Of a stretch of 64,000 nucleotides of DNA, positions 2,341-38,425 are shown piece by piece; position 1 is the first letter of the stretch, and every line of letters starts with the position of its first letter. The stretch is taken from assembly GCF_056712565.1 (NCBI RefSeq), contig NZ_CM160072.1; one strand, written 5' to 3'. The notes beneath the pieces are model-generated. The model had not been told where the DNA came from and did not search any database. It was given only the letters and a program-made list of their open reading frames with translations. The translations under genes and the position numbers were made by a program.

Positions 2341-4563
2341 TTGGCTGTTCAATTCGCTTATCCGTGGAACGTCCCACGGTCGGCAATCTCCAGCCCATAC
2401 CTTACTTATGAGCAACAGCATCGCCGCGACCGTATGTTCGCGGCTTTGCTGCATGCAAAAAAGGTGCTTTCTCTCCAGCCCGACTGCGTGCGGTTAGATG
2501 TTTATCGCACTGCTGCGGTGCTGGAGCAAAATCAGGGTAGTCAACGAGCCAATGCATTTTTAATCAGCTTCTGCAAAAAGGCATTGCCGCGTCTTGAACT
2601 GGTCGCAAAAAAATACGAATGCGCTGGTATCAACAGCAAGGTATCAACCGCTGTTTTTGGAAGTCATTTTGATACTCAGCAAATGCAATATCTGTCGTCA
2701 CGCATGGTTAATATGGTCGCCCGATATAACCGTCTCCCGGACATGTCGCGCGCTGATGTTGACCTGTTGGCCGCTGATATTGCTAATTTCATTCGTGGTG
2801 AACTTGCCAACATTAATGACCACGGATTCGGCGAGCTTAAAACGCTGTACACCTGGTATATTCGTGCTGGCTTTATTTCCCTCCAATTCAACGTTATCCC
2901 ACCACATTGGGAGCGGGTTGAAAAAAAATATGTCGGTGCGGATGAAATCGCACCGGCTATCGCCAAAATGTTTAACGATGGGTGGTGGCGCGGTCGTTTG
3001 CGCCGTGTAGCAGCTACGTGGCGCGAACACCTGCAAATTGCAGTCGGCAACGTCAGTAAGAAAAAAAACACTTACGCGAGTAAAAACTGCGTGACTGACT
3101 GGCGTGAACAAAAGCGCCGCACTCGTGAATTTCTCAAAGGTCTGGATCTCGAAGACGAAGACGGCAACCGTATCAGCCTAATTGAAAAATATGATGGCTC
3201 AGTTGCTAACCCTGCGATTCGCCGCTGTGAGCTCATGACCCGCATTCGTGGGTTTGAAAACATCTGTAATGAGCTCGGTTATGTCGGTGAGTTTTACACT
3301 CTAACCGCGCCGTCAAAATATCACGCCACGACTAAAGCCGGTTACCGTAACAGCAAATGGAGCGGTGCCAGCCCGGCTGACACGCAAAACTATCTAACCG
3401 GTATCTGGGCGCGTATCCGTGCCAAACTACATCGGGAAGATGTCCGTATTTTCGGTATTCGTGTCGCCGAGCCCCATCACGACGGCACTCCACACTGGCA
3501 CATGCTGATGTTCATGCTGCCGGAAGATGTTGAATATGTTCGCTCCATCGTCCGTAAATACGCATGGAAAGAAGACCGCCACGAACTGAAAAGCGATAAA
3601 TCCAAAAAAGCACGTTTCCACGCGGAGTCCATTGACCCGGAGAAAGGCAGCGCAACCGGCTATGTTGCTAAATACATTTCAAAAAATATCGACGGTTATG
3701 CTCTCGATGGTGAAACCGATGATGAAAGCGGTGAGCTGCTGAAAGAGACAGCCCCCGCCGTTTCAGCATGGGCTGCGCGCTGGCACATCCGTCAGTTTCA
3801 GTTTATTGGTGGTGCGCCGGTGACGGTTTACCGTGAGTTGCGTCGCCTCGCTGATACCGAAACCGCGCACGGTCTGAGCGTTGAGTTTGCCGCCGTCCAT
3901 GATGCCGCCGACGCTGGTGACTGGGCTGGTTATGTTAATGCTCAGGGTGGGCCGTTTGTCCGTCGCGATGATTTACAGGTGCGCACACTGTATGAACCGC
4001 GTACCGAGCTTAATCAGTACGGTGAGGAAACGGTATGTATTAAGGGGGTCTACGATTCCTCCATAGGTGCAGGAAGCCCGATTTTAACCCGGCTCACTCA
4101 GTGGAAGATTGTTCCGAAGCGTGCTGTTGATTTGCCCGTTGACCTTCAGGACGGCAAAGCCGTCCCTCGGAGTTCTGTCAATAACTGTACGGGAAGCGAA
4201 AGCGATCCACCGATACTGGATTTAACAAAACCACTGAGTCGGCGTGAAAGACGAGAATTGACCAACCGACTCAGGAAGCAAAAGCCAGCAGCACGGCGAA
4301 AATTCATCCACGGAACGGATGAGCAAAACGCAGCTATAGCTAAAACTATCGATGAGATACATCTGACAACCGGCATTAATATCAGCCGGGGCGAAGCCCT
4401 GCACCTGATGGCCGGTGGTAAAAGTTGTTTTGATGGTAAATGGCTACGCGGAACGGCCAAAGGAGAAATATTTTCCGCAGCACCATCGCATGAGGCTAAA
4501 GCTCGGAAAATCCTTAATCGTGTTGCGGCGATGGCTGAAGCATTAAAACCAATACATGAGTAA
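2341..4563 (+). CDS. A: replication initiation endonuclease (P2 gpA family, rolling-circle initiator)
   Basis: 740-aa ORF (TTG start in track; true start may be downstream ATG); motifs PHWHMLMF and YVAKYISKN (active-site Tyr region) as in gpA. Confidence 0.8.
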   Translation: MAVQFAYPWNVPRSAISSPYLTYEQQHRRDRMFAALLHAKKVLSLQPDCVRLDVYRTAAVLEQNQGSQRANAFLISFCKKALPRLELVAKKYECAGINSKVSTAVFGSHFDTQQMQYLSSRMVNMVARYNRLPDMSRADVDLLAADIANFIRGELANINDHGFGELKTLYTWYIRAGFISLQFNVIPPHWERVEKKYVGADEIAPAIAKMFNDGWWRGRLRRVAATWREHLQIAVGNVSKKKNTYASKNCVTDWREQKRRTREFLKGLDLEDEDGNRISLIEKYDGSVANPAIRRCELMTRIRGFENICNELGYVGEFYTLTAPSKYHATTKAGYRNSKWSGASPADTQNYLTGIWARIRAKLHREDVRIFGIRVAEPHHDGTPHWHMLMFMLPEDVEYVRSIVRKYAWKEDRHELKSDKSKKARFHAESIDPEKGSATGYVAKYISKNIDGYALDGETDDESGELLKETAPAVSAWAARWHIRQFQFIGGAPVTVYRELRRLADTETAHGLSVEFAAVHDAADAGDWAGYVNAQGGPFVRRDDLQVRTLYEPRTELNQYGEETVCIKGVYDSSIGAGSPILTRLTQWKIVPKRAVDLPVDLQDGKAVPRSSVNNCTGSESDPPILDLTKPLSRRERRELTNRLRKQKPAARRKFIHGTDEQNAAIAKTIDEIHLTTGINISRGEALHLMAGGKSCFDGKWLRGTAKGEIFSAAPSHEAKARKILNRVAAMAEALKPIHE

Positions 4564-4862: not shown

Positions 4863-5093
4863 ATGAGAATCAATATCACGTTGGATAAAGAGCAAAAATT
4901 AGGGCAACAGATCATTGATGCTTTTCAGAATGAAATAACACATCGAGTACAATGCGTTTTTCCTGCAACAAAAGTTAACGTTAAGAAAGGGTCAATGACT
5001 GGTGTAGAGGCTATCGGATTCGATAAAGAGGCGGACAGAGAAACATTAGGCAGCATATTACAAGAGATTTGGGAAGACGATAGCTGGCGTTAA
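4863..5093 (+). CDS. DinI-family protein (Tum C-terminal domain-like)
   Basis: 76 aa MRINITLDKEQKLGQQIIDAFQNEITHRVQCVFP...LGSILQEIWEDDSWR matches DinI pattern (MRIEVTIAK...ISEILQETWESADDW) from memory. Confidence 0.6.
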   Translation: MRINITLDKEQKLGQQIIDAFQNEITHRVQCVFPATKVNVKKGSMTGVEAIGFDKEADRETLGSILQEIWEDDSWR

Positions 5094-5292: not shown

Positions 5293-5502
5293 ATGCATCG
5301 ACTACCAGGTGAAATACCGCAGCACAAAACTAAAAGCATCAAACTGATGGCCATCGTTCATCGTTTGCAGCAGATAATGGTCAATGAGAATTTGACACCC
5401 GCAGAGCTGGTCGGGTGTGCCGAAATAGTCAGGGATAATTACGGCAAGCTGGATAGCATCAGCAGGTCGAAACAATACGCACCACCACCACGTCGACGAT
5501 AG
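5293..5502 (+). CDS. hypothetical small protein (69 aa)
   Basis: ORF with RBS GAGGGTGATAAT before ATG; flanked by the two direct repeats. Confidence 0.4.
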   Translation: MHRLPGEIPQHKTKSIKLMAIVHRLQQIMVNENLTPAELVGCAEIVRDNYGKLDSISRSKQYAPPPRRR

Positions 5503-5530
5503 CAAACGCCGCCGGTTCTGAAACTCGCTT

Positions 5531-5573
5531 TCAGTACTGGCGGGGGTTGAACAACGAGCACCGCGAGGCGTTA
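5531..5573. repeat. copy 2 of ~32-bp imperfect direct repeat
   Basis: See copy 1; both copies preceded by a short hairpin (CGCAAAAA..TTTTTGCG at 5117-5137; CTGAAA..TTTCAG at 5519-5534). Confidence 0.5.
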
Positions 5574-5576
5574 GCA

Positions 5577-6518
5577 TTAATTTATTTTTAATGAATGGTA
5601 ATCTCGTGAGTTGACCGAAGATTTGAGATAACTGCAATCATTAACCGACAGTATTGCCGCTAATAGGCGACATACCAGTGCCTGCATTTGCAGCAATATA
5701 TCGTTACCATATTGACTGTTGTTAACACTTGAGAAACCAAGCGGTTGACCAAAAAAAATAGCCTCATGAAAATTATCATTGCGGATGCCAGAAATGTTTT
5801 TTTTACCTGACACCCATGTGGGGATTGATAACCCATAAATTTTGCACATCCACTTTAATCGCTTGTAATGATTTGGCGGTTTTTTATCAGGAGCCTTGTC
5901 ATGCTCAGCCCACGACAAAGCAAAGCACCCATCAAGTGCCATGTAAAGATACTGGAATTTTTCAAAAGAAAGGTATTGTGGGTTTTGAGATAAGAATAGT
6001 GCATGCACCACTGCCGCAATTCTTTTGGGGGAGTGCGCATCCTTATGTTTGCCATTTATATAATTAAGAGCCAGTTCTATGACTTCTTTTTCAGAGCATC
6101 CAACGAGAATAAAGTCGGTTAACTTAGTGGGCTTGATAGTGGTTGCATCTAAAAAACCAGCGTCAGTGGTTGTCAATCTTATTCCCTTGAAAAAAGAAAG
6201 GCACCACACAATAAAGTTGAGAGTTTCTAACGAGGATGTATTTTTTAATTTTAGTGTGTGCGTTTTGGGCATACTGAATACTCGGTGACTATAAGGCATT
6301 GTGGATATGCCACCATTAAGGTTATATACATCTTGGTTTCCAGGGTATATCCAACCTTTCACAACGTTTTTATCATTATTAACACGCTCCACTTTCTCAT
6401 TGAGACCAGGTAAAGTAAGCAAAGAAAATTGTTCAGTCTCAATGTTAACTTCTACTGGATAGTATCCAAACTCCGACATAATCTCATTGGGTTGCTGTTC
6501 GTCAACTTCACCTTGCAT
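5577..6518 (-). CDS. hypothetical cargo protein, 313 aa, with RNxxxH motif (possible HEPN-like)
   Basis: AT-rich ORF unlike flanking phage DNA; motif GIRNDNFHEAIFF (R-x4-H) near C-terminus; no other recognisable domain. Confidence 0.6.
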   Translation of the reverse strand: MQGEVDEQQPNEIMSEFGYYPVEVNIETEQFSLLTLPGLNEKVERVNNDKNVVKGWIYPGNQDVYNLNGGISTMPYSHRVFSMPKTHTLKLKNTSSLETLNFIVWCLSFFKGIRLTTTDAGFLDATTIKPTKLTDFILVGCSEKEVIELALNYINGKHKDAHSPKRIAAVVHALFLSQNPQYLSFEKFQYLYMALDGCFALSWAEHDKAPDKKPPNHYKRLKWMCKIYGLSIPTWVSGKKNISGIRNDNFHEAIFFGQPLGFSSVNNSQYGNDILLQMQALVCRLLAAILSVNDCSYLKSSVNSRDYHSLKIN

Positions 6519-6541
6519 ATCTTTCTCCGTTCAAAAATAGG

Positions 6542-6557
6542 CTCGATAATTATCGAG
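6542..6557. promoter_or_regulatory. perfect 16-bp palindrome upstream of the 313-aa gene (candidate operator)
   Basis: CTCGATAATTATCGAG, 24-39 bp upstream of start codon at 6518 on reverse strand. Confidence 0.35.
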
Positions 6558-6755
6558 AGGCTATCATGTTTGGAAAGAACCAATGTCCGTAATTTTTGTA
6601 AATTTAAGGTGATTTATCAATAAATAAGCTGTGCATGCAACAGGTGCATGGTTCTGCATGCGCCGGGGTTACCCGTTTTGTACGTGCGCCGCAAGAGCTG
6701 GCGGGGATCCAGAGTGGTCATGCAACTGCATTAAAACCGCCCCATAAAGCGGGCA

Positions 6756-6774
6756 GGCGTGGCGGGGAAAGCAT
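6756..6774. other. cos: cos cohesive-end sequence, 186 type
   Basis: GGCGTGGCGGGGAAAGCAT equals the 19-nt 186 cohesive end as recalled (P2 GGCGAGGCGGGGAAAGCAC); in GC-rich non-coding stretch between A-side cargo and portal gene. Confidence 0.6.
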
Positions 6775-6993
6775 TGCGCGTCAGCAGTGATGCGTAATAA
6801 TAAAAATTATCCTCTGAGCGCGTCGTGATGGCGCTGTCGTGGTCGCTGCTGGTTCGTTGGTGGTCGGGTGTGTTCGTGCGCGTGAGACGCATCTGATGCG
6901 TGATGGTGGTGTGCATGGAAAAGCCACCAGGAGCAGCGGCTTTACAGGAGTGGCAGGATTCAAACTGCTAATTATGTTTCTACTATGATTAAA

Positions 6994-7998
6994 CTAATTT
7001 ACATGTATGTAGAGTTCACCGTCGCCAGACCAATCGGGACACTCTAAAACAAGCCCAAACTGCTTGAATATTTCATCAATGATTATTGTTATCTCCCGAA
7101 AATCACCAAAACCTGTAATGTGCTGGTCATTAAACTTCCCATAAAGATTCTGAAAAGCAATGCCTAATTCTGATAATTGATATCTTATCTTTGAGTTGGA
7201 TAGTGTAAGGGATAGCTTTGGATCGTATTCTTTAATATTGATGTTTAGAGAATGGACATAACCCATCGCATAAGCATAAGAGTTGATGATTAGCCTGATA
7301 CGTTTTTTTACTTCGAGATACATGTCATTCAGAGAAATATTACCGTACTTATAACCCCAGATGAGTTTTTCAATCTCGTCAGATACTTCATTTACAACAG
7401 TGTCAAGATTCTCTAAAAATAAATCGATAGTTTCTTGAGGGGCAGACCCCGAAGACATGTAATTAGCGAGATATTCAGACCATGCACGCGTGGCTGAGAT
7501 AAGAAGCGCGCTACCATACTCGTTGACTGTAAAGTTTTGGGCTAAGCATGTTAGTAAGTTTTTTTCATGTACGTGCACTAATTCATGGTGAATGCGATGG
7601 ATGACTGCGAGGTATCCTTCTTCTTTCAGTTTTAAGAAGCTACCATCATTGAAAAGCTCAACAAAAAAATCAATCGATAGCACAAGGGTATATTCTTCAC
7701 ATAGCCCATCATTGCCAATTTTTGTTACTAACTGCCCGACGGCTGCGCCCTGTTTACTATTGGTAAATGAACTAGGGGATTTGTGTTGGTAAGAGGATGT
7801 TACCTTTTGAAGAGCTTCACTGAAGTTATAGGAAACAATCACGCATTTTAATTTGGAGATATCAAGATTGAGATTTTTTGTTAAAGCTCGGATAGCTTCT
7901 AGTGTGAAATTACCGATATTATTTGCTTCTTGCTCAGTAGCGAAACCTTCGAGGGTTATTTTAAAATCAGTTTCCAAAATATTAATCTCCGCGCCCAT
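6994..7998 (-). CDS. hypothetical cargo protein, 334 aa, HExxH...E zinc-metallopeptidase-like motif
   Basis: AT-rich ORF between cos and portal gene; HELVH with Glu 22 residues after first His (gluzincin-like spacing). Confidence 0.6.
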   Translation of the reverse strand: MGAEINILETDFKITLEGFATEQEANNIGNFTLEAIRALTKNLNLDISKLKCVIVSYNFSEALQKVTSSYQHKSPSSFTNSKQGAAVGQLVTKIGNDGLCEEYTLVLSIDFFVELFNDGSFLKLKEEGYLAVIHRIHHELVHVHEKNLLTCLAQNFTVNEYGSALLISATRAWSEYLANYMSSGSAPQETIDLFLENLDTVVNEVSDEIEKLIWGYKYGNISLNDMYLEVKKRIRLIINSYAYAMGYVHSLNINIKEYDPKLSLTLSNSKIRYQLSELGIAFQNLYGKFNDQHITGFGDFREITIIIDEIFKQFGLVLECPDWSGDGELYIHVN

Positions 7999-8075: not shown

Positions 8076-9122
8076 TTATTCTGGGTTGTCGAGGGTGTAC
8101 TCTTTGAATCTGATGACCTCCATGCCGAGCCAGTCATTTACCTCCCTGAACCTGTCCTGTAGCGGCGACAGCTCGTTGCGCACAAATACCTTTGCCACCT
8201 TCTCAACATCACCGAGTGAACCGATATTCTCGGGCTTGCCGCCCATGAGCTGGAACGGTACGCGGTGCGCGTCCATCAGATCGGCGGCACTGGCCTTCTT
8301 GATGTTGAAAAAGTCATCCTTTGTGGCGACCTCGCTCAGTGGCACGATTTTGATGCCGTCCGGTTTTCCGCCGGGAGCGTAGAAAAACAGGTTCTTAAAG
8401 TTGCCGAGCCCTTTTGAGTTGCGCATCGCCTCGCGCAGCGATTCGACGTCGGTCGCGCTCTGCGCCGGGTCAGTCACATACATGATGTAACCCGCGTGCG
8501 CGCCGTTCTGATAATACTTGCGGCGGAACAGCGTCGCGGATTCATTCAGCCAGGCGGAATTTAGCGCGCTGAGATATTCGGGCAGGCCGTAAATCTCCTG
8601 ATTAATGTCGGGCTCCAGCAGGTGAAACACGGTATCAGGCGCGAACTCGTGCGGCTGGGTGAAGTTTTCCACAAACCAGAAAATCGAATCGTCGACTCCG
8701 CGTCGGGTGTATTTGGCTGGCGAGGCCAGCAGTTTGATTAACTGGCCGGTGACGCTGTGGCGCTGCTCAAGAAAGGCGTTACCGAACACCAGATAATCGA
8801 GCGCAAAGCGGCTGAAATCCTGACGGGATAACAACGGGTGCGGAATGTAGGTGCTCGCGAGCACGTTACGCTTAACATAAATTGGCGAGCTGTGATGCAC
8901 GGCAGAGCGCAGGCTCTTTGCCAGCCCTGAGAAGCTGACCGGCGGCTCGTACCATTTGCCGTTACTGATGCACTCGACGTAATCCAGAATGTCGCGCTTA
9001 TCGAGTACCGGCACCGGCTCGCCGAAGGTGAACGCTGTCGTTTTTGGCGGTGCGCTGGCGGTCAGTTGTTGTGGTTTGCTGGCCTTTTGTGCGTTGGCTT
9101 TACGGGATTTTTGTTTACCCAT
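8076..9122 (-). CDS. Q: capsid portal protein (P2 gpQ family)
   Basis: 348 aa, size/position as P2 Q, immediately downstream of terminase on reverse strand. Confidence 0.8.
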   Translation of the reverse strand: MGKQKSRKANAQKASKPQQLTASAPPKTTAFTFGEPVPVLDKRDILDYVECISNGKWYEPPVSFSGLAKSLRSAVHHSSPIYVKRNVLASTYIPHPLLSRQDFSRFALDYLVFGNAFLEQRHSVTGQLIKLLASPAKYTRRGVDDSIFWFVENFTQPHEFAPDTVFHLLEPDINQEIYGLPEYLSALNSAWLNESATLFRRKYYQNGAHAGYIMYVTDPAQSATDVESLREAMRNSKGLGNFKNLFFYAPGGKPDGIKIVPLSEVATKDDFFNIKKASAADLMDAHRVPFQLMGGKPENIGSLGDVEKVAKVFVRNELSPLQDRFREVNDWLGMEVIRFKEYTLDNPE

Positions 9123-9123
9123 T

Positions 9124-10893
9124 TTAGTTGAACTCCAGAATAGATTTAGGCTGCATGCCGCTACCGGCAGAAAGCGGTTCGTTTAACAGGGCGTGCATGG
9201 TCGCCCATGCGATATCGGCGTGGCTGGCTTCCTCGGTGCGGCTGGCCTCATAGGTGGCGCTGCGCCCGCTGCTGGTCATGGTTTTGCGGATGGACATAAA
9301 CGACTGCGTGACGTCGGTTGCTCCGGCGTCGTACTCCAGACAGCCACGGCGAATGGTGTCTTTCGCCTTGAGTACCATTGCGGTTTTCATTTCAGGTGTG
9401 TAACGGATGCCGCGTGCCGCCGGGTAAAATGAGCGCACCAGCTGGAACACGCCGAGACCGAGGCCGGTTGCGTCAATGCCGATGTATTCGACGTTGTATT
9501 TCTCGGTCAGCTTGCGGATGCCCTCTGCCTGTGCTGCAAAATCCATGCCCTTCCACTGGTGGCGCTCCAGCATGCGGAACTTGCCACCAGAGACCACCGG
9601 CGGCGCGAGCACGACGCACCCGGCACTGTCGCCGGTGTGTGACGGGTCGTAGCCAATCCAGACAGGACGAGAGCCGAACGGATGGTCGGCGAACGGGGCA
9701 AAGTCCTCCCATTCCTCCATCACATCGACCATGCAGCGCTGCAGCTCCTCGAACGGGAATACCGACGCTTTATCGTCGACAAACTCGCACATAAACAGGT
9801 TCTTAAAGTCCTCATCACTGTTTTCGCGTTTGAGCTGGTCGAGGTCGAACAGGGTGCAGCCACCCGCAAGGGCGTCCTCAATGGTGACAATCTGCCGCCA
9901 CTGGCCATCGTCGCAGAGCTGGCCACCGGCGAGCGCGCTGTGACTGATGTCGATTTCGATGCGGTCGGCAATCCGGCTGCGCCCCTTGTTGAACAGCTCG
10001 CCAGACCAGAAGGGGTAAGCGCCGTGCGCCAGCGTGGAAGGTGTCGAAAAATAGGTCGAGCGCAGGTGCTTTTGCGAGGCCATGCCCGAGGCGACTTTGC
10101 GCAGTTTCTGAAAATTCGGGATCCAGAATATTTCATCGACATACAGATCGCCGTTATGGCTCTGCGCGGTGTTGGAATTGGTACCGAGAAAAATCAGTTT
10201 TGCGCCGTTGTTACCGATGACAATCGGGTCGCCAGTCAGGTCAACGTCGACCAGTCGCGCAAACTGGATGATGTATTCGCGGAACACGTAAGCCTGCGTT
10301 TTACTGGCTGATAAAAATATCTGGTTATGGCCGGTTTTGAGTACGCGCAGCAGTGCCTCGCGGGAGAAATAGAATGTCGCGCCAATCTGGCGGGATTTGA
10401 GAATGTCACGAATACGGTGCTCCAGTCCTGCGCGGTACCACTGCAACTGGTACTCGAAAGACTGGTCGAAAAATAATTCCTCTAGTTTATCGATAGCCTC
10501 GTCGCTGAAAAAATTCTTTTTCGGCTTTTTGCGCTCCCCTTTGTTGCGGTTGGCGACGTTGGGGTTAAGGTCGGCTTCGTTGCCGGTCTGGCTGTAGCGG
10601 TTGACTCGCGCCAACCGTTCAATCTGCCGTCCGAGCAGGTCAATCTCTTTGAAATCACCCCCTGTCTTTTGCGGCTTGGCGATGAGCTGAATCAGCCTAG
10701 CCTCAAGGCTGCTTTCAACGCGGGAAATCGGCGCGATGCCGTCCCAGCCGTCGCGCTGCTTCCAGCTCTGCACGGTCGGGCGCTTGACCTGCAGCATTTC
10801 GGCAATCTGTGGCACGGAAAAACCCTGCCAGTAAAGCAGCGATGCCTGCCGTCGCGGGTCATGCAACAAGGTTGTATCGGTGGAAATGGTCAT
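9124..10893 (-). CDS. P: terminase large (ATPase) subunit (P2 gpP family)
   Basis: 589 aa, size/order as P2 P. Confidence 0.8.
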   Translation of the reverse strand: MTISTDTTLLHDPRRQASLLYWQGFSVPQIAEMLQVKRPTVQSWKQRDGWDGIAPISRVESSLEARLIQLIAKPQKTGGDFKEIDLLGRQIERLARVNRYSQTGNEADLNPNVANRNKGERKKPKKNFFSDEAIDKLEELFFDQSFEYQLQWYRAGLEHRIRDILKSRQIGATFYFSREALLRVLKTGHNQIFLSASKTQAYVFREYIIQFARLVDVDLTGDPIVIGNNGAKLIFLGTNSNTAQSHNGDLYVDEIFWIPNFQKLRKVASGMASQKHLRSTYFSTPSTLAHGAYPFWSGELFNKGRSRIADRIEIDISHSALAGGQLCDDGQWRQIVTIEDALAGGCTLFDLDQLKRENSDEDFKNLFMCEFVDDKASVFPFEELQRCMVDVMEEWEDFAPFADHPFGSRPVWIGYDPSHTGDSAGCVVLAPPVVSGGKFRMLERHQWKGMDFAAQAEGIRKLTEKYNVEYIGIDATGLGLGVFQLVRSFYPAARGIRYTPEMKTAMVLKAKDTIRRGCLEYDAGATDVTQSFMSIRKTMTSSGRSATYEASRTEEASHADIAWATMHALLNEPLSAGSGMQPKSILEFN

Positions 10894-15956: not shown

Positions 15957-16386
15957 CGCCGTGCCGCAGCTCCGAAATAATCCCGATATGCTGCGCCTTT
16001 TTGCCGACAACGGCCATACCGATTCCCGACTGGCGAGCTCGCTGTCGTTTGAAAAGGTGTACGTGCTTAACGTGGTGGTGACTGACTTCACCGGTGACCT
16101 TGATTTGATATTCGTGCCGGTGCAGGCGTGGCTGCGTGAACATCAGCCGGACATTATGACCACCGACGACGGGCGGGAAAAAGGATTCACCTGGATTATT
16201 GATATCAATAACGACGATTCGCTCGATATCAGTATCAGCCTGAGGCTCACCGAGCGCACACTCGTCAAAGAGGTCGACGGCGCGCTGCACGTCAGCTATG
16301 CCCCTGAGCCGCCACTGCCTGAGCCGGTGACGCGCCCGGTCGAGCTGTACGTTAACGGCGAACTGGTGAGTAAGTGGGATGAGTGA
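15910..16386 (+). CDS. R: tail completion protein (P2 gpR family)
   Basis: 158 aa, order R-S. Confidence 0.7.
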   Translation: MNSMQKHKSLRKALINAVPQLRNNPDMLRLFADNGHTDSRLASSLSFEKVYVLNVVVTDFTGDLDLIFVPVQAWLREHQPDIMTTDDGREKGFTWIIDINNDDSLDISISLRLTERTLVKEVDGALHVSYAPEPPLPEPVTRPVELYVNGELVSKWDE

Positions 16387-36763: not shown

Positions 36764-38425
36764 ATGTTGGCACAACTGACCATCAGCAACTTTGCTATCG
36801 TTCGTGAGCTTGAGATTGATTTTCATAGCGGCATGACCGTAATAACTGGCGAGACCGGCGCGGGTAAATCTATTGCAATAGATGCCCTCGGCCTTTGTCT
36901 CGGTGGTCGCGCTGAAGCCGACATGGTGCGTACCGGCGCTGCTCGTGCCGACCTGTGCGCCCGTTTTTCTCTGAAAGATACGCCAGCGGCCCTGCGTTGG
37001 CTGGAAGAAAACCAGCTTGAAGACGGGCATGAATGTTTGCTTCGTCGCGTAATCAGCAGCGATGGTCGCTCCCGTGGTTTCATCAACGGTACAGCTGTTC
37101 CTCTGTCACAACTGCGCGAACTGGGTCAGTTGCTGATTCAGATCCATGGTCAGCACGCTCATCAGTTACTCACCAAACCCGAGCACCAAAAATTCCTGCT
37201 TGATGGCTATGCCAATGAAACCTCTCAGCTCCAGGAAATGACCGCACGTTATCAGTTGTGGCATCAAAGCTGCCGTGACCTCGCGCATCATCAGCAGTTA
37301 AGTCAGGAACGCGCCGCCCGTGCGGAGCTGCTGCAATACCAATTAAAAGAACTTAACGAATTTAATCCGCAGCCTGGAGAGTTTGAGCAAATCGACGAAG
37401 AGTACAAACGTCTGGCGAACAGCGGTCAATTGCTGACCACCAGCCAGAATGCATTGGCATTAATGGCTGACGGTGAAGACGCAAATCTGCAAAGTCAACT
37501 TTACACGGCTAAACAACTGGTGAGCGAATTGATTGGCATGGACAGCAAACTGTCCGGCGTACTTGATATGCTGGAAGAGGCTACCATCCAGATTGCTGAA
37601 GCCAGTGATGAACTACGCCACTACTGCGATCGTCTGGATCTCGATCCCAACCGACTGTTTGAACTTGAACAGCGCATCTCAAAACAGATTTCGCTGGCAC
37701 GTAAACATCACGTCAGCCCTGAGGCATTGCCACAGTATTACCAGTCGCTACTGGAAGAACAGCAGCAACTGGACGATCAGGCCGACTCACAAGAAACGCT
37801 CGCGCTGGCGGTAACGAAACATCATCAGCAGGCACTGGAAACGGCGCGCGCGTTACACCAGCAACGCCAGCATTATGCAAATGAGTTGGCACAGCTGATC
37901 ACCGATAGTATGCATGCACTCTCTATGCCACATGGGCAGTTTACGATCGATGTTAAATTTGACGAGCATCACCTGGGCGCTGACGGCGCTGATCGTATTG
38001 AGTTTCGGGTAACCACCAACCCAGGTCAGCCAATGCAGCCTATTGCCAAAGTCGCATCCGGTGGTGAGTTGTCCCGCATCGCATTGGCAATCCAGGTCAT
38101 TACCGCGCGTAAAATGGAAACCCCGGCACTGATTTTTGATGAAGTGGATGTAGGGATTAGCGGCCCAACAGCGGCAGTTGTCGGCAAACTGCTACGTCAA
38201 CTTGGCGAATCAACTCAGGTGATGTGTGTTACCCACCTGCCACAAGTCGCGGGATGTGGTCATCAACACTATTTTGTCAGCAAAGAAACCGATGGTGCGA
38301 TGACAGAAACGCATATGCAATCCCTGGATAAAAAAGCGCGGTTACAAGAGTTGGCGCGCCTGCTTGGTGGCAGTGAAGTCACACGTAACACACTGGCGAA
38401 TGCGAAAGAACTGCTTGCGGCGTAA
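36764..38425 (+). CDS. recN: DNA repair protein RecN (SMC-like ATPase)
   Basis: 553 aa, Walker A GETGAGKS, coiled-coil middle, C-terminal signature region. Confidence 0.9.

Follow-up and report, generated by a model that had tools for sequence, protein, structure and literature searches.

Location of ORF313 in a P2-like prophage

ORF313 is an open reading frame (ORF) for a protein of 313 amino acids, found in a 64,000-nucleotide stretch of contig NZ_CM160072.1 (NCBI RefSeq assembly GCF_056712565.1). The whole of this stretch was analysed and is called the window. The gene belongs to a P2-like prophage, which takes up the first ~11 kb of the window, and probably encodes a stand-alone HEPN abortive-infection RNase, plausibly a single-gene phage-defence toxin. 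A first-pass annotation, made from the letters of the DNA, had described the ORF, called it cargo, and drawn attention to an RNxxxH motif in the protein and a palindrome at the promoter. The ORF is present as described (Table 1), and the cargo label is apt: the gene is situated between gpA and the cos region and portal gene Q of the prophage, and its GC content is low (0.37-0.40, compared with 0.50-0.60 for the phage backbone). The protein corresponds to WP_001622299.1, annotated as a 'hypothetical protein', and falls in phrog_5937. E. coli SF-468 matches the window with 100% identity.

The cos-adjacent locus between gpA and gpQ is a validated anti-phage hotspot (Rousset et al. 2022, PMC9122126), and ORF313, a variable gene between gpA and gpQ beside cos, is part of its cargo. 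In phage P2 itself, old and tin occupy the slot and are read in the direction of ORF313, starting from a promoter beside cos. The slot and orientation of ORF313 recur in 7 phage records and 43 viral contigs. The ORF313 protein of phage P2-EC67 is 90% identical to that of the window, and six further P2-like phage records encode proteins with 74-100% identity. P2-like viral contigs with a 50-52% identical copy also keep the position, after terminase, portal and cos, with the gene converging on gpA. ORF313 is an accessory gene. It is carried by 88 of 5426 complete E. coli genomes, and ~310 further E. coli genomes match just the cos-adjacent part of the window (6627-6800), where old-bearing P2 aligns too. 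The gene is probably best described as a stand-alone accessory ('moron') gene that is placed and oriented like P2 old.

The 108 nucleotides upstream of ORF313 (6519-6626) occur as two haplotypes, which are ~80% identical to each other. When the window is compared with three related loci, these haplotypes and the coding variants are found in shuffled combinations. In an Enterobacter prophage, the identity is 95% for the upstream region and 76% for the coding region, and in P2-EC67 it is 80% and 93%, respectively. The shuffling is direct evidence for recombination within the hotspot, and the locus exemplifies cassette swapping at the P2 old/tin slot, with promoter haplotypes and coding variants that move independently.

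Table 1. Features of the ORF313 locus and of the surrounding prophage (positions in the window)
Feature	Position	Strand	Remarks
ORF313 coding sequence	5577..6518	minus	ATG at 6518, stop at 5577; 313 amino acids + stop
Shine-Dalgarno GGAG of ORF313	6525..6528	minus	6 nucleotides ahead of ATG; conserved in related loci
N-terminal α/β domain	6054..6485	minus	~residues 12-155; AlphaFold2 model
C-terminal helical HEPN-like domain	5619..6041	minus	~residues 160-300; E186, H251, G261 and R284 invariant
Rx4H catalytic-type motif R246-N-D-N-F-H251, then E252	5766..5783	minus	inside GIRNDNFHEAIFF (residues 244-256)
Perfect 16-bp palindrome CTCGATAATTATCGAG	6542..6557		24-39 nucleotides upstream of ATG; followed by CCTATTTTTG on the minus strand; contains -10-like GATAAT
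Promoter-like site TTTCCA-16-GATAAT	6549..6576	minus	consensus scan; -10 inside the palindrome
Promoter-like site TTGATA-17-AAAAAT	6592..6620	minus	consensus scan; aligns with the mapped P2 old-tin promoter and transcript start
Imperfect inverted repeat	5503..5549		21 nucleotides, 81% complementary; separates ORF313 from the convergent 69-amino-acid ORF
Replication endonuclease gpA	2341-4563	plus	phrog_91
DinI-like gene	4863-5093	plus	phrog_189, E 6e-30
69-amino-acid ORF	5293-5502	plus	phrog_11386 (function not assigned)
Generic P2 cos region	6737..6774	minus	boundary of the cargo slot
Terminator-like hairpin GCCCGCTTTATGGGGCGGTTTT	6756-6737	minus	conserved; within the cos region
19-nucleotide match to P2 cohesive end	6774-6756	minus	within the cos region
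334-amino-acid ORF	6994-7998	minus	phrog_11743 (function not assigned)
Portal Q	8076-9122	minus	
Terminase P	9124-10893	minus	

Conserved motif and predicted fold

ORF313 belongs to a large protein family. A word-indexed search retrieved 398 relatives, and an exhaustive profile search identified at least 644 clusters at 50% identity. Almost all members are ~290-325 amino acids long, with coverage over the full length. Named hosts include Enterobacteriaceae, Aeromonas, Pseudomonas, Acinetobacter and Stenotrophomonas, and relatives in the AlphaFold database extend to genera such as Magnetococcus, Marinomonas and Halanaerobium.

Conservation was counted in an alignment of 37 homologous sequences, with identities down to 25%. 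Residues H87, G112, E186, H251, G261 and R284 are invariant, and T86, R114, D135, Y192, D196, H217, R220, R246 and N247 are nearly so. In the N-terminal part, 36-37 of the 37 homologues retain T86 and H87, and at least 90% retain W56, R114 and D135. The segment GIRNDNFHEAIFF, in which the first-pass annotation had seen an RNxxxH motif that fits the Rx4-6H signature of HEPN RNases, is present and is indeed the conserved motif, with R246 in 36, N247 in 34 and H251 in all 37 sequences. R246-N247-x3-H251 has the Rx4-6H form that is typical of the HEPN superfamily and often reads R-N/H/Q-xxx-H. For a protein of this composition ~0.7 strings of the Rx4-6H type are expected by chance, and two are observed, so that R246-x4-H251 is meaningful because of its conservation, not through its mere presence. 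The second string, R166-x5-H172, is not conserved, since the arginine is found in just 9 of the 37 homologues.

An AlphaFold2 model of ORF313, built with 35 homologues, has a predicted local distance difference test score (pLDDT) of 82 and a predicted template modelling score (pTM) of 0.83. The N-terminal domain consists of seven β-strands and three helices in the model. It has no convincing match among solved structures, and for residues 4-60 there is a weak, unconfirmed profile match to RyR domains of bacteria. The C-terminal domain is predicted to adopt the four-helix up-and-down bundle of the HEPN superfamily. The best structural matches include HepT, which has a minimal HEPN fold. Foldseek searches of the AlphaFold database retrieve family members for which the UniProt name is 'Apea-like HEPN domain-containing protein' or 'ApeA N-terminal domain-containing protein'. 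Proteins of 416-485 amino acids with the same types of names are matched over the full length (E 2e-5 to 3e-4, TM 0.45-0.48). Both these names and the near-invariance of RNxxxH across the family support the HEPN assignment. Members of the HEPN superfamily are metal-independent endoribonucleases in which dimerisation joins two motifs in a composite active site. In a linker-fused two-copy AlphaFold model of ORF313 (pTM 0.77), the R246-H251 segment turns helical, with a rise in pLDDT from 57 to 71, which would fit a defined homodimer.

Genomic context of the homologues

No neighbour gene is common to the ORF313 loci across the contexts examined, which comprised P2-type loci and distant homologues. 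In the P2-type loci, the genes downstream of ORF313 vary and converge on it. Homologues are often located in mobile or defence islands. One distant homologue is found in a P. aeruginosa island with DUF932/ParB genes, adjoining a Gabija-like pair (OLD-type TOPRIM ATPase and UvrD helicase), another is located beside a TniB (transposon-type) gene, and a third adjoins HEPN_AbiU2 and TumE genes. Some distant homologues stand alone in the chromosome. The adjacent cognate antitoxin gene or repeat array of a toxin-antitoxin system is missing from ORF313. A type III RNA antitoxin or a riboswitch-like RNA upstream of the gene was considered and rejected, because tandem repeats and Rfam matches are absent from this region.

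A different arrangement is seen for two homologues (61-63% identical; loci L022 and L061), which are preceded in the same direction by a gene for a protein of ~892 amino acids (1-2307 in L022, 1087-3765 in L061). In L022, this protein has matches to PHP and AAA_21 (ATPase) domains. L061 is apparently a P2-like contig, with a gpA-sized ORF that converges downstream. The ~892-amino-acid gene and the ORF313 homologue may form a two-gene arrangement in some lineages.

Proposed function of ORF313

ApeA, DARNA and HepS are single-protein HEPN systems that act as infection-activated tRNA anticodon nucleases, and are controlled allosterically rather than transcriptionally (10.64898/2026.01.26.701840, 10.64898/2026.02.22.705581, PMC13043305). 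By analogy, a similar course of events can be proposed for ORF313. The ~150-residue α/β N-terminal domain would be packed on the C-terminal HEPN-type domain, with R246-N-x3-H251 as the RNase active site. The lysogen would produce the protein all the time, from one or more promoters that belong to the gene itself and are situated between cos and ORF313, and the protein would be kept inactive in a dimer or a larger oligomer. A second phage, on infecting the cell, would provide a cue, sensed by the N-terminal domain or in an interdomain pocket, and thereby activate the protein. Once active, it would cut host RNA, most probably in tRNA anticodon loops as in ApeA, HepS, DARNA and PrrC, and the resulting halt of translation would abort the infection. 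The conserved N-terminal domain, with T86-H87, R114 and D135, is the presumed sensor or regulator.

ORF313 might not serve defence at all, and instead be the toxin of an addiction module, or a factor that benefits the phage, for example by RNA processing or host shut-off in the lytic cycle. This appears improbable, because no antitoxin gene, MNT partner or repeat array is conserved next to the gene, because just a minority of the E. coli genomes with a match to the cos-adjacent stretch have ORF313, and because homologues are also found outside phages, on chromosomes and genomic islands.

Other results weigh against the assignment as a HEPN RNase itself. The least confident part of the model, with pLDDT below 50, comprises residues 247-262, right around the motif. 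Pfam was searched with ORF313 alone and with two family alignments (72 sequences), and NCBIfam was searched as well, in all cases without a match. A scan of the PADLOC models, which include ApeA, PD-T7-3 and PD-T4-2, returned nothing relevant for ORF313 (E<=1) or for 10 distant members of the family (E<=10). Searches of the literature, including those by ORF name and accessions, did not retrieve any experiment on the ORF313 family or any report of anti-phage activity for this protein. The low confidence at the motif and the missing HEPN profile match, together with modest structural scores and a Foldseek search of the PDB that gave no significant match (HepT chains appear, but with E about 4), would suit a C-terminal domain that is HEPN-like without being a nuclease, perhaps a ligand-binding helical bundle with conserved residues in structural or binding roles. 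Against this, R-N-x3-H-E, the exact catalytic signature, shows hardly any variation even at 25% identity, and relatives carry InterPro-derived HEPN names. This explanation is the most improbable of the alternatives.

The palindrome and the promoter region

The first-pass annotation had interpreted the perfect 16-bp palindrome upstream of ORF313 as an operator for tight regulation of a possibly toxic gene. The palindrome is there, and CTCGATAATTATCGAG occurs once in the window, but the regulatory interpretation is not borne out. The symmetry is imperfect in 31 of 41 P2-type loci, the palindrome is absent from homologues outside P2 phages, it overlaps the -10-like GATAAT, and it may be located in the 5' untranslated region (UTR). 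The window contains three perfect 16-bp palindromes. Block shuffles contain 1.0 on average, and 61% of the shuffles have at least one. As about one is expected by chance, the palindrome upstream of ORF313 is not exceptional by itself. The two others, TTATTGATATCAATAA and ATCTATTGCAATAGAT, are found at 16196-16211 and 36868-36883, respectively.

Among the 41 P2-type loci, the palindrome occurs in seven haplotypes. It is perfect in 10 loci, and the remainder keep 4-7 of the 8 symmetric pairs. The commonest haplotype, TACGAGAATTATCGTG, accounts for 15 of the 41 loci and keeps 6 of 8 pairs. The conserved parts are the right arm and the T run that follows it, and the left-arm variants all retain a -10-like pattern (GATAAT, GAGAAT, AATAAT, CAAAAT or CATAAC). 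The dyad symmetry that should mark an operator is thus not kept across homologous loci. Outside P2 phages, the sequences upstream of the homologues are unrelated, which indicates that the palindrome is tied to the setting of expression in P2 rather than to the gene family.

Two promoter-like sites are present in this region. In an alignment with P2, for which old-tin transcript starts are annotated, the old-type promoter falls on TTGATA-17-AAAAAT, with a likely start near 6585. The palindrome may then be located within the 5' UTR, at about +28 to +43 of the mRNA. By eye, no convincing P2 late-promoter (TGT-N12-ACA) or Cox/C-type sites are found upstream of ORF313. Most simply, the palindrome is part of the -10 region and/or a 5' UTR hairpin that sets the level of expression.

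It is possible, though rather doubtful, that the palindrome acts as RNA. A transcript from the old-type promoter would contain the hairpin and five U residues, 12 nucleotides before the Shine-Dalgarno sequence, and this element could limit expression as a leaky terminator, attenuator or stabiliser. Consistent with this idea, a scan marks the palindrome as terminator-like on the ORF313 strand, a hairpin with a U run behind it can form in both haplotypes (with differences in the pairing details), and a C-G to U-G change between the haplotypes preserves pairing only in RNA. The start near 6585 that the alignment to the mapped P2 starts makes likely also agrees with a transcribed palindrome. However, the folding energies are no better than those of shuffled sequences (z +0.2 to -1.7), and the stem is short, AT-rich and weakened in several haplotypes.

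A dedicated operator is probably not the explanation, and is the least supported of the three readings of the palindrome as -10 element, 5' UTR hairpin or operator. In such a scenario, a dimeric phage or host repressor would bind CTCGATAATTATCGAG over the -10 element and keep a toxic gene off until induction. The perfect dyad does overlap a -10-like hexamer, its perfect form recurs in an Enterobacter prophage with a protein that is just 73% identical, and the two main haplotypes differ by one symmetric double change (T:A to A:T, positions 2/15). Nevertheless, a true operator is quite unlikely. Besides the chance expectation for such palindromes and the absence of this one from homologues outside P2 phages, the loss of 1-4 of the 8 symmetric pairs in the imperfect loci affects mainly the left arm, and the -10-like pattern kept in the variants suggests constraint by the promoter rather than by the dyad. 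No regulator was identified, and no candidate for one is linked to ORF313. Moreover, HepS, as a known solo HEPN defence protein, is made constitutively and controlled at the protein level (PMC13043305).

Neighbouring features

The DinI-like gene and the 69-amino-acid ORF share the variable region of ORF313 and converge on it, and the occupants of this region vary among ORF313 loci. The inverted repeat where the 3' ends of ORF313 and the 69-amino-acid ORF converge might stop transcription in both directions, but neither strand has a T run there.

The 334-amino-acid ORF has a low GC content and is situated between cos and portal Q, in a second cargo slot across cos. The identical protein is encoded on more than 800 contigs and has no significant match in Pfam, NCBIfam or PADLOC. 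As a partner of ORF313 it was rejected, because it is missing from other ORF313-bearing phages and hence independent of ORF313. In its own right, it is a candidate for an accessory or defence function.

Between the cos hairpin and the ORF313 promoter, at 6627-6720, there are several TGCATGCA-like repeats, spaced ~10-13 nucleotides apart. Repeats that resemble TGCATGCA are also present upstream of old in P2. The repeats are not part of the ORF313 cassette, because the stretch also matches E. coli genomes without ORF313. They may be packaging or terminase-binding elements.

Implications

In view of the 'Apea-like HEPN' names of its relatives and the already published hotspot, ORF313 does not represent a new principle. 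If its function were confirmed, a widespread and very compact HEPN effector would join the prophage-borne defence systems, with at least 644 clusters that are invisible to Pfam, NCBIfam and PADLOC. The small and strongly conserved N-terminal domain would then be a tractable model for infection sensing by solo HEPN nucleases. For annotation, the 'hypothetical protein' of 88 complete E. coli genomes could become 'HEPN domain protein, putative abortive-infection RNase'. More tentatively, ORF313 might found a new compact (~300 amino acids) single-protein defence system, which would be wide in Proteobacteria, have relatives in genera such as Halanaerobium, and have been missed by current defence-finding tools. 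In that case, the N-terminal domain with T86-H87/R114/D135 could be a new kind of infection sensor, whose ligand would be a small molecule or nucleic acid of phage or damage origin, and which would open a HEPN anticodon nuclease by allostery.

Comparison with known systems

ApeA is reportedly one of the defence systems of Gao et al. 2020. Like ORF313, it is a single gene without a partner, with its HEPN domain located C-terminally and a non-catalytic N-terminal region that packs against it, and relatives of ORF313 in the AlphaFold database bear ApeA-type UniProt names. By analogy, ORF313 would be expected to act alike, as an infection-activated RNase. However, ApeA has ~580 amino acids, compared with 313 for ORF313, and consists of three α-helical domains (N, Mid and split HEPN) that assemble into a doughnut-shaped decamer (10.64898/2026.01.26.701840), whereas the N-terminal domain of ORF313 is a small α/β fold. 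Moreover, ORF313 matches neither the PADLOC ApeA model nor Pfam HEPN_Apea or ApeA_NTD1, so that the sole link is through the UniProt names and the Foldseek matches with E 2e-5 to 3e-4.

The known solo HEPN nucleases respond to quite different cues. ApeA is activated by 5'-phosphorylated deoxydinucleotides, bound in a pocket that lies between its N-terminal domain and its HEPN domain (10.64898/2026.01.26.701840), DARNA by single-stranded DNA that is presented by phage SSB (10.64898/2026.02.22.705581), and HepS by a phage tail-tip peptide (PMC13043305). HepS, from the Salmonella prophage Gifsy-1, is a constitutive abortive-infection anticodon nuclease (PMC13043305), and is similar to ORF313 as a prophage-encoded, partner-less HEPN protein in an accessory-gene slot. 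It is nevertheless a bare HEPN domain from a lambdoid prophage, with the motif at R100-H105 and homologues limited to <=250 amino acids, whereas ORF313 comes from a P2-like phage and has an extra N-terminal domain and the motif at 246-251. A sequence relationship between the two was not detected. DARNA/PD-T7-3 is also a single HEPN protein, and cleaves tRNA once activated. In contrast to ORF313, its HEPN domain (R117-H122) is N-terminal and is followed by a helical C-terminal domain of ~300 amino acids, for a total of 456, and the PADLOC models do not match ORF313. DARNA/PD-T7-3 and HepS were therefore rejected, on architecture, as the family to which ORF313 belongs.

HepT-MntA and other HEPN toxin-antitoxin pairs resemble ORF313 in so far as a minimal HEPN fold is one of its best structural matches, but ORF313 has neither an MNT gene nor another antitoxin gene beside it, and its N-terminal domain is an addition. 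P2 old (and tin) provide a parallel in position, with the same slot and orientation, their own promoter beside cos, and a promoter region that aligns partly with that of ORF313. P2 Old is an abortive tRNase (10.64898/2026.07.10.737580), but it is an unrelated protein of 586 amino acids with an ABC ATPase and a TOPRIM nuclease. Thus, ORF313 departs from ApeA, HepS and DARNA in profile match, size and domain architecture, and at the same time has the motif and predicted fold of the HEPN superfamily and the place of cargo in the P2 defence hotspot.
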